This document shows, one piece after another, positions 12,101 through 15,100 of a stretch of 64,000 bases of DNA. The stretch is from assembly GCF_013167455.1 (NCBI RefSeq), contig NZ_CP038328.1. One strand, written 5' to 3'. The position numbers are program-made. Position 1 is the first letter of the stretch. Every line of letters begins with the position of its first letter. Origin of the DNA: Escherichia coli O157:H7. Lineage in GTDB: Bacteria > Pseudomonadota > Gammaproteobacteria > Enterobacterales > Enterobacteriaceae.

Positions 12101-15100
12101 ATCATTGGCGGTTCCTAATGGCAAAATTCCCAGCGCGGGTATGTCATCCCCCTCACACTGAATCAACGCCGTAGAAACTTCATTAATGGTGCCATCGCCA
12201 CCACCGGCAATCACCGTTGCGACGCCCAACTTCCGGGCCTCCTCTACATATCGTGCGGCATCGCCTTTCTCCCAGGTGACCCGCACATGGATCGTCATTC
12301 CTTCCTCACGCAACAGCATAATTGCTTCGCGCAAGGGTAGATTGTCAGTACTTTTGCCATTAAGAATCAGTAAGCTGGCGGGAAATTCTGCCATGATCGT
12401 ATGTGCCTTTATGATTGGTCTATAGATAGTGTAGAGCAGAAAAGAAAAGGTGGAGTCAGAACAGGATGAAAGTCGGAGGATAAATAGTCAGTTCAAGTAT
12501 GGAGGATTCAGTGGTTACCACCAGGAGCTTGCAATGGGGACAGCGAATACTAACGGCAGCCACCGATAAATTTCAAAAAAGAGCATATACCTAATATTCA
12601 ACTAAACAGTGGCTTCTTCAATATAATATATTAAAGCCTCCATGGAGTTACCCGGAAGGGCCTCCATGTCCGTAATTCCTACTTATGTAGGAAATGTTTT
12701 ACAGAACATTTATTATAATCCTATTCAATTATAATAATCATGCCATTATTATATTTAAACACTAGAGAGTGTCGTTGGTATTTAATGGGGGAAGGTGAGA
12801 TGAAAAAGATAGCTGCTATATCATTAATTAGTGTTTTTCTTATGTCTGGTTGTGCTGTGCATAATGATGAGACAAGTATCGGTAAATTTGGTCTTGCATA
12901 TAAAAGTAATATTCAGCGTAAACTCGATAACCAATACTACACCGAAGCCGAAGCTTCTTTAGCCAGGGGCAGAATATCTGGTGCAGAAAATATAGTAAAA
13001 AATGATGCAGCCCATTTCTGTGTTACTCAGGGCAAAAAAATGCAGATAGTTGACCTGAAGACAGAAGGTGCAGGATTACATGGCGTCGCTCGTCTGACAT
13101 TCAAATGTGGAGAGTGAGAATATTTTTTGGTAAGCGTCAAACATGCGCGTTCTGGTTGTGCTTAGCCGGAACCTGTGCGAGCACGATGCCGTTACGTGAA
13201 AGGCATCGTGCTATGAAGGGAGATTCTATCGATGTGGTCAATGGAAGACGGTTATCAGGGATAGGGCTTATGCATAAAAAATAAGCCCGTGTAAGGGAGA
13301 TTACACAGGCTAAGGAGGTGGTTCCTGGTACAGCTAGCATTTTATGGGTTATGTTTTTCAGCGAAACGGATGATAACCTTAATAAATGCAGCTGTATGTG
13401 ATCGGTTTCTAAGAATTTTCCATCCGGGAAAAATAATCGAAATTAATCACTTACCGTGGGGGTTACGCGTAGTTTCCCCGGAGAAATTACGCATCAGCAG
13501 CGCGTAATTTAGCTCAAGATCCTGCGGCACCGGGAGCCACACAGTATAACCATCGCCTGGTGCTACCGGCATAGCTTCGCCTTTGGCGTTTTCCATGTGC
13601 TCAAGGGTAAAGTTAATGTTGCCTTGCGGCGTCATCAGCTCAAGGCTGTCGCCAACGGAGAATTTATTTTTCACCGCTACCGCCGCGAGGTCCCCCTTGC
13701 GCTCACCGGTAAACTCACCAACAAACTGCTGGCGGTCAGAAACTGAATAACCGTATTCGTAGTTCTGATAATCGTCGTGAGTATGACGACGCAGGAAACC
13801 TTCGGTATAGCCACGATGCGCCAGACCTTCCAGAGTTTCCAGCAGGCTGGTATCGAACGGTTTGCCCGCAGCGGCATCATCGATAGCTTTACGATAAACC
13901 TGTGCGGTGCGTGCGCAATAGTAGAAAGATTTAGTACGGCCTTCGATTTTCAGCGAATGCACGCCCATTTTGGTCAGGCGTTCTACATGGGCGATGGCGC
14001 GCAGATCTTTCGAGTTCATGATGTAAGTGCCGTGCTCATCTTCAAACGCGGTCATATACTCGCCCGGACGCTGGGCTTCTTCGATCATAAACACTTTGTC
14101 GGTTGGCGCGCCGATACCCAGCGTCGGCTCAACATTTTGCACCGGAATCGGCTCGTACTTGTGTACGATGTTGCCAACGTCATCTTCTTTCCCTTCCTGG
14201 ACGTTGTACTCCCAGCGGCAGGCGTTGGTGCAGGTACCCTGGTTCGGATCGCGCTTGTTGATATAGCCAGAGAGCAGGCAGCGACCGGAGTAGGCCATGC
14301 ACAGTGCGCCGTGAACGAAGATCTCGATCTCCATATCCGGCACCTGATTGCGGATCTCTTCAATCTCTTCCAGCGACAGCTCGCGAGAGAGGATCACGCG
14401 GGTCAGTCCCATTTGCTGCCAGAATTTCACCGTCGCCCAGTTCACGGCGTTAGCCTGTACCGAGAGATGGATCGGCATTTCAGGGAAGTGCTCACGCACC
14501 AGCATAATCAGCCCTGGATCGGACATAATCAGCGCATCCGGCCCCATTTCCACCACCGGTTTCAGGTCACGGATAAAGGTTTTCAGCTTGGCGTTGTGCG
14601 GTGCAATGTTGACCACGACATAAAACTTTTTCCCCAGCGCGTGGGCTTCATTGATGCCGAGCTGAAGGTTTTCGTGGTTGAATTCGTTGTTGCGCACACG
14701 CAGGGAGTAACGCGGCTGGCCCGCATAAACAGCATCTGCGCCATAAGCGAAAGCGTAACGCATATTTTTCAGCGTTCCCGCCGGGGAAAGGAGTTCCGGT
14801 TTAAACATAATTCTCTCGTTCTGATGACAGGTCAGATCCGCTTCACCTGATGAAGCGGTTAGGGGAGTGCCCCCACTTTAAGGGCGGGCATTGTAGCGCT
14901 GTAGGGGGGATCTGGTAAAGCGCCGGACGCCAACAACCCACGCCCGGCATCGTAATTACGTATTGTCTTTCACCGTCTGGCTTGTGCCATTGGCTTTAAC
15001 GGAGGCAATTCCGGTTTCACGAGATTGCGCGGTGGCATACATCTGGCTGGAGCCGATAATTTGATGATTGGCGGCTTTCAGATTGAAATAGAATTTGCCG

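Follow-up and report, generated by a model that had tools for sequence, protein, structure and literature searches.

The P2 attachment site at the 3′ end of the cyaR small RNA gene is in its empty state in a strain of Escherichia coli O157:H7

Attachment sites at the 3′ ends of RNA genes have been described for several phages: tRNA genes for phage 186, ssrA for Fels-2 and SopE-phi, rybB for the P2-type Rybb prophages, and sdsR/ryeB in Salmonella (PMC3448106, PMC3032704, PMC3333887, PMC3603311). The P2-type integrase (Int) binds the core together with arm sites (consensus tgTGGaCa) and, with IHF, recombines attP with the attB core (PMC3448106). For E. coli, the genome paper of strain W lists a “cyaR RNA” insertion site, occupied by Wphi2 (P2) in W itself, by ogr-D′ in K-12 and by P2*B in B, and vacant in Crooks (PMC3032704), and ryeE was given as an already known phage target by Bobay et al. 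(PMC3603311). Since published work names cyaR/ryeE as a P2 target, the site is already known; earlier work has documented the P2 site, the fact that it overlaps cyaR/ryeE, and the remnant in K-12, and what we report here is a known feature in its empty state. It holds little for discovery, and its main uses lie in annotation and strain typing. The site follows the same logic as the other RNA-gene sites, in that the phage core copies the 3′ end of the RNA and the gene survives. It differs from them in what is shared, as only 27 nt of cyaR are involved, comprising the terminator loop, the 3′ half-stem and the U-tail, and not a tRNA-like T-arm or acceptor end.

The DNA analysed was a 64-kb stretch of E. 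coli O157:H7 (hereafter the window). The features on the yegQ side of the site were as follows.

13276..13302, plus strand: P2 att core of the attB locI type, 27 bp, an exact match to P2 attP; on the minus strand it forms the last 27 nt of cyaR
13276..13362, minus strand: cyaR (ryeE) small RNA gene, 87 nt (Rfam RF00112), identical to the K-12 copy
13284..13311, minus strand: intrinsic terminator of CyaR, 11 pairs and a 6-nt loop, then TATTTTTT (terminator scan and fold)
13375..13370, minus strand: −10-like TATCAT upstream of cyaR, read from the sequence
13397..13412, strand not assigned: TGTGA-N6-TCTAA, a CRP-like site some 42 nt before the 5′ end of cyaR, read from the sequence
13447..14808, minus strand: yegQ/trhP, encoding the tRNA U34 hydroxylase; a conserved gene next to cyaR, on its upstream side (ORF and RefSeq annotation)

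An exact search of the whole 64 kb placed AAAAAATAAGCCCGTGTAAGGGAGATT as a single copy at 13276-13302 on the plus strand, and no further copy was found across the window when up to 3 mismatches were allowed. The core lies in the gap between yegR, whose stop codon ends at 13117, and yegQ/trhP, whose stop codon on the minus strand begins at 13447, so that the gap spans 13118-13446 (329 bp). The 1.2 kb surrounding the core was 100% identical to E. coli O157:H7 genomes. When the core was compared with P2 (AF063097), all 27 of 27 positions were identical to 24356-24382, which that record labels as “attP” and “Int, attP core”, with the Int P-arm site and an IHF site to the left and the Cox sites and the Int P′-arm site to the right. 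A BLAST search against 50,697 phage records likewise returned a 100% match to P2 (AF063097/NC_001895) at 24355-24382. The earlier note on this DNA had taken the 27-mer for the P2 core and proposed an exact-match comparison; that comparison identified it as the annotated P2 attP core. We take its position to be locI, the preferred P2 site of E. coli C.

The same bases belong to an RNA gene. On the minus strand, Rfam RF00112 (CyaR_RyeE) matched 13364..13279 with 100.7 bits against a gathering threshold of 47, covering model positions 1-85 of 85, and the K-12 cyaR 87-mer was found unchanged at 13362..13276. The predicted minimum free energy fold of CyaR (−19.8 kcal/mol, z = −3.0) ended in an 11-bp terminal hairpin and a U-tail, and was scored as a rho-independent terminator, with a stem of 11 bp, a loop of 6 nt and UAUUUUUU next to it; on the minus strand, the terminator scan gave no other strong intrinsic terminator in the region. 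The att core corresponds to the loop, the 3′ half-stem and the U-tail of this terminator, and the 5′ half-stem (13303-13311) lies outside it. CyaR is reported to be CRP-dependent (PMC3333887), and the CRP-like site at 13397-13412 is consistent with that dependence. To see how the neighbourhood is kept, species-representative genomes were scanned with a conserved cyaR 22-mer, which yielded 120 loci; yegQ adjoins cyaR in about 115 of them, and in nearly all, as in the window, its end precedes the cyaR 3′ end by about 180 nt. The window copy agrees with the described CRP-dependent, Hfq-binding CyaR/RyeE (RF00112) in its 87-nt sequence, terminator, U-tail and yegQ synteny, with a candidate CRP-like site upstream, and no difference was detected between them at the level of sequence. 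We also considered whether a G-U wobble in the CyaR terminator marks a chimera imposed by the phage, and rejected this, as the ACRCRGGC variation among species resembles ordinary drift through wobble intermediates.

The region had been described in the earlier note as unoccupied, with the 27-mer present once and no phage genes around it. The single copy and the lack of phage genes held in the 329-bp gap: an ORF scan and the K-12 alignment revealed no ogrK, D′ or other phage ORF in 13118-13446, and no protein gene between yegR and yegQ was found by the ORF scan. The word “unoccupied” stood in this sense only. The gap holds cyaR and is therefore not unoccupied DNA; it is intergenic for protein genes alone, and should be annotated as cyaR plus attB(P2) instead of as empty intergenic DNA. 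Two ORFs that overlap cyaR here, of 59 aa (plus strand) and 67 aa (minus strand), are unsupported and were not accepted as genes. A match between 13122-13170 and the right end of the phage 186 genome (77.6% identity, E = 1) was dismissed as noise. As a separate observation, the last 10 bases of the core, AAGGGAGATT, recur at 13216-13225. A permissive alignment paired this copy with the 3′ half of the P2 ogr terminator and its T-run and not with the core; the recurrence may be a coincidence, and as a candidate core fragment it enters none of the arguments below.

The site was next compared with K-12. There the arm on the yegR side runs into a truncated core, AAAAAAATAAGCCCGTGTAG, joined without a gap to a D′ (yegZ) fragment; ogrK with its terminator, the P2 P arm, a full core and cyaR come after it. 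In the alignment the remnant lies between the truncated and the full core and the DNA is otherwise collinear, so the neighbours yegR, cyaR and yegQ and the host arm are the same in both strains, while the remnant and the truncated left core are peculiar to K-12. The window is without this ogrK-D′ remnant of about 630 bp, which the earlier note had correctly placed in K-12. The site is empty here, with neither a full prophage of the kind described below for strain SS52 nor the K-12 ogrK-D′ remnant; the claim of an empty P2 site in this strain was therefore upheld by a full core, no phage genes and no remnant.

Natural lysogens on the same DNA were then found. The record of phage vB_EcoM-720R8 (ON470606) includes host flank and reads gatR, yegS, yegR, host arm, core, int, C and cox; it is a natural attL on DNA of the window's type, with int toward yegR. 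In O157:H7 strain SS52 a complete P2-like prophage occupies the site between two exact cores 31,960 bp apart, with int adjoining yegR and ogrK adjoining cyaR. The attL junction in SS52 and 720R8 runs from the host arm through the core into TAGGGTGTCACC… (P′ arm, int), and the attR junction from the P arm through the core into ACACAGGCTAAGG… (the remaining cyaR). When the SS52 prophage was excised in silico, by joining 3 kb to the left of the attL core with 3 kb to the right of the attR core, a single mismatch to the window was obtained in 6,027 nt. To judge from these junctions, a P2-family phage has already used DNA of the window's type as its attB within the same serotype. In its attP-identical core, and in natural lysogens whose int faces yegR and whose ogr faces cyaR, the locus matches the described P2 attB at cyaR/ryeE; nothing essential is different, and the window site is simply unoccupied, as in Crooks (PMC3032704).

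These lysogens also bear on the idea that the match to the P2 core is a terminator-like coincidence unrelated to integration. The sequence does have an independent function as the CyaR terminator, and nothing else speaks for that idea. About 7e-12 exact matches to a 27-mer are expected in 64 kb, AAAAAATAAGCCCGTGTAAGGGAGATT had no match in 100 dinucleotide-preserving shuffles, and the prophages of SS52 and 720R8, bounded by the core on the same DNA, have already refuted it; its probability is negligible. We consider it highly probable that the 27-mer is both the 3′-terminal 27 nt of cyaR (ryeE) and the primary P2-family attB (locI type), unoccupied here, which should accept a P2-family phage.

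Integration at this attB would proceed as follows. Int and IHF would assemble on the phage attP (P arm, core and P′ arm), the attP core would be paired with the identical 27 bp of the chromosome, and strands would be exchanged inside the core. The predicted products are an attL made of the yegR arm, core, P′ arm and int, and an attR made of ogr, P arm, core and the remaining cyaR. The junctions observed in SS52 and 720R8 fit such a P2-type tyrosine integrase mechanism. In the SS52 lysogen cyaR was found unchanged, and it would stay intact because the loop, the 3′ half-stem and the U-tail of the terminator come with the phage in identical form. Judging from the sequence and from the sister strains, P2-family integration should take place in the window strain as well. 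Whether a strain is competent for P2 depends as well on its receptor, its immunity, IHF and the defence systems that it carries.

How often the site is occupied was determined in a census of 5,426 complete E. coli genomes. A site was classed as empty when a 201-bp probe with the core at its centre matched without interruption, as attL when host arm, core and P′ arm/int were matched at a coverage of at least 80%, and as attR when the P2 P arm, core and cyaR were present, K-12-type remnants included. An uninterrupted site was found in 4,202 genomes (about 77%), a P2-type attL with integrase in 813 (about 15%) and a P2-type attR, K-12-type remnants counted, in 1,273 (about 23%). The earlier note had called the locus a prophage hotspot, and with 813 attL and 1,273 attR junctions among the 5,426 genomes this proved right for P2-family phages. 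About 50 genomes could be placed in neither class, bare site or P2-type junction. Whether the site is empty, holds the ogrK-D′ remnant or carries a full P2-like prophage can serve as a quick typing marker, one that is variable even inside O157:H7.

The census and the SS52 comparison raise a further question, whether the window site is virgin or was restored by the precise excision (Int plus Cox) of a past P2-like prophage that left a perfect attB. The flanks of SS52 and the window differ by 1 nt in 6 kb; the gain or loss of the prophage within O157:H7 must therefore be very recent, and P2-type junctions in nearly a quarter of the genomes imply a high turnover, both of which would suit a restored site. 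Against it, the uninterrupted site is the majority state of the species, and no feature of the sequence favours loss of a prophage over its never having been gained. Precise excision leaves no trace, so empty and restored sites look the same in sequence. On balance we regard restoration as unlikely and treat the site as an empty attB.

The earlier note had also called the locus a defence-island hotspot; this claim was overstated and held only indirectly. The prophage of SS52 carries a Lamassu system, with LmuA (3.5e-108), LmuC (1.5e-52) and LmuB (1.5e-235; all PADLOC E-values) located between the replication endonuclease gene (gpA) and the portal gene (gpQ). The gpA-gpQ interval of P2 was described as a defence hotspot of P2-like prophages by Rousset et al. 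2022 (PMC9122126). The SS52 Lamassu lies at exactly the same place, and this hotspot belongs to the phage genome and not to the chromosomal locus. Defence cargo does arrive at the site inside a prophage, whereas the chromosomal locus itself is no defence island: no defence genes were found at the yegR-yegQ locus in the window. That the locus gathers defence genes on its own account, independently of P2-type prophages, appears very improbable. The occupied SS52 site does bring a Lamassu system, but this system sits inside the prophage at the phage's own hotspot, cyaR is the only gene between yegR and yegQ in the window, more than three quarters of the genomes (77%) are bare, and the occupied genomes that were examined show P2-type junctions. 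An occupied site would predict extra defence cargo, such as the Lamassu system in SS52, and an empty site has none.

The other flank of the core, on the yegR side, has features of its own, which are listed here.

12476..13275, no strand: extra 800-bp segment that includes yegR and abuts the outer edge of the core (alignment and boundary mapping)
12800..13117, plus strand: yegR, predicted lipoprotein of 105 aa, Pfam PF27694 (ORF; RefSeq annotation of identical DNA)
13180..13212, no strand: 11-bp inverted repeat, AGCACGATGCC / GGCATCGTGCT, downstream of yegR (from the sequence)
13229..13256, plus strand: apparent decayed copy of the P2 Int P-arm site in the yegR-side arm (local alignment to P2)

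Across the 120 species loci, yegS starts 65-140 nt past the cyaR 3′ end in most Enterobacterales, against +873 in the window. Three Escherichia genomes share the short distance, with values of +77 to +79: Escherichia sp. E1V33, E. whittamii and E. coli E69, a divergent strain. The difference is made up by the 800-bp segment, which is absent from these three genomes and from most Enterobacterales; one of its boundaries coincides with the outer edge of the core, and the other lies shortly before the conserved sequence upstream of yegS. The GC content over yegR and the segment is 31-42%, compared with 50-58% in neighbouring genes. In a homologue survey YegR (PF27694) was essentially confined to E. 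coli and Shigella, and its few distant relatives were located among transposases or at unrelated chromosomal sites.

Within the segment, the 15 nt at 13229-13243, TCGATGTGGTCAATG, are identical to the start of the annotated Int P-arm site of AF063097 and lie 32 nt from the core. The local alignment to the P arm scored 30, whereas 1,000 shuffles averaged 15.7 (sd 2.2) and none of them came up to that score; 23 of 28 positions are kept, with two 1-nt indels, and 25 of 28 in the host arm of 720R8. Upstream of it, the inverted repeat at 13180-13212 would, by analogy, sit where the ogr terminator of P2 sits relative to the P arm. It was followed by no T-run, and the terminator scan made no terminator call there.

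These features suggest another history for the flank, in which the yegR-side arm is a fossil left by an earlier element, of the P2 family or another, at the cyaR core, the attB is its scar and yegR its cargo. Such a history would account for a segment that is missing from relatives and begins exactly at the core edge, for the 15-mer identical to the P-arm start and the similarity over the whole site, for an order of gene, hairpin, arm site and core that parallels ogr, terminator, P arm and core in P2, and for the low GC content of the segment and the narrow distribution of YegR, found among transposases elsewhere. On the other hand, the P-arm similarity covers a short stretch, the arm motif stands 16 nt closer to the core than in P2, the IHF region is unrecognisable, and no recognisable second core stands at the yegS end, where a degenerate candidate scored 13-16, shuffles averaging about 14 ± 2.6, and was rejected. 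YegR itself is found in phage records that include host flank and in no others. It did match phrog_21109 at 2e-72 (nothing was above the cut-off in NCBIfam), but a tblastn search of the 50,697 phage records returned two records only, 720R8 and “Phage TP”, both with host flank. We thus rejected the match as evidence of a phage origin of YegR; as its matches in phage records are host flank, the phrog_21109 match is probably a boundary overreach. Taken together, a fossil flank is a possibility that we hold tentatively and do not favour. The same caution applies to its fuller form, in which an older P2-family element may have inserted at the cyaR terminator in an ancestor of E. coli and left the 800-bp scar, and modern P2 would use the core regenerated by that scar; we think this somewhat less probable than its opposite. 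The host arm as an insertion with a decayed P-arm site would be a modest evolutionary footnote to the empty P2 attB, the assignment of which is our main reading.

Traces of P2-type phages at cyaR were also found in other genera. Of 119 loci with enough flank, seven had paired P2-type arm sites 40-52 nt past the U-tail of cyaR, followed by a hairpin resembling the ogr terminator, and several of the seven also had an Ogr homologue. Five were from Citrobacter and one from a Buttiauxella MAG; the last was P2 itself on a contig labelled Collinsella, which is probably contamination. The cores at these loci follow the local variant of the cyaR terminator, ACGCAGGC, as against ACACGGGC in E. coli. With P2-type arms beside variant cyaR terminators, the use of the cyaR 3′ end by the P2 family is therefore not limited to E. 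coli. If the older insertion in E. coli were true, then together with the arms in Citrobacter and Buttiauxella it would make the cyaR 3′ end an ancient, reused landing pad that spans genera, with a flank that records past occupants.

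In the chromosomal flank of the P2 att core on the yegR side (the host arm), the following features were recognized in the window.

12476-13275: AT-rich segment of 800 bp, containing yegR
13229-13256: apparent decayed copy, in the host arm, of the 28-nt P-arm site bound by P2 Int
13264-13288: 8-bp inverted repeat, GGGCTTAT / ATAAGCCC, straddling the boundary between host arm and core

The 800-bp segment was missing from relatives; it was found neither in Escherichia sp. E1V33, E. whittamii and E. coli E69 nor in most Enterobacterales, and in the relatives without it yegS followed cyaR after 65-140 nt. 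In the window, this insertion begins precisely where the att core ends on its outer side. The putative P-arm remnant was identical to the P2 site over its first 15 nt and kept 23 of 28 positions with two indels; its distance from the core is 16 nt shorter than in P2. On the minus-strand RNA, the inverted repeat could form a second hairpin drawing on the U-tail region.

P2-type P arms were also observed directly 3′ of cyaR in Citrobacter spp. (loci L021, L031, L036, L081 and L087) and in a Buttiauxella MAG (L098), as paired GTCCAC/GACCAC sites 40-52 nt past the cyaR U-tail. A terminator resembling that of ogr accompanied them, and some of these loci also had an Ogr homologue; the core variants matched the cyaR terminator of the respective locus. 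In E. albertii NBRC 107761 (L011), the distance between cyaR and yegS was about 3.4 kb, a decayed P-arm-like sequence lay immediately past the cyaR U-tail, and the 3′ half of the cyaR terminator was of the Citrobacter type (ACGCAGGC); this locus may represent a further remnant state of the att site. On a contig labelled MAG: Collinsella sp. (L124), a cyaR of the E. coli type was found together with an unaltered P2 core, the P arm and P2 Ogr at 100% identity; this contig is almost certainly enterobacterial contamination in an actinobacterial bin.

At the same att site, E. coli O157:H7 SS52 (L129) harbors a P2-like prophage with defence cargo, placed between gpA and gpQ, the known P2 defence hotspot.

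L129 2818-6507: complete Lamassu system (LmuA/C/B)

Two features from other genomes concern yegR or a yegR-like gene.

L002 2494-2665 and L006 919-1090 (approximate): indel of ~170 bp
L130 6001-6318: YegR homologue (51% identity), Enterobacter sp. BIDMC 29

Genomes of the ST131 type and the host of phage vB_EcoM-720R8 have the indel directly 3′ of the stop codon of yegR, and the 720R8 record (ON470606) annotates a 41-aa ORF inside it. It is absent from the window after 13117 and has no relation to the att core. The Enterobacter homologue was flanked by IS3-family, IS110-family and Tn3-family transposase genes, with omptin and MFS transporter genes adjoining; because it lies among transposase genes, yegR-like genes are found in mobile contexts.

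Farther along the window, another group was detected.

26726-27530 (minus strand): Sib antitoxin RNAs in a tandem array of three, each scoring 140-145 bits against RF00113

At the homologous position in SS52, three Ibs toxins are annotated.
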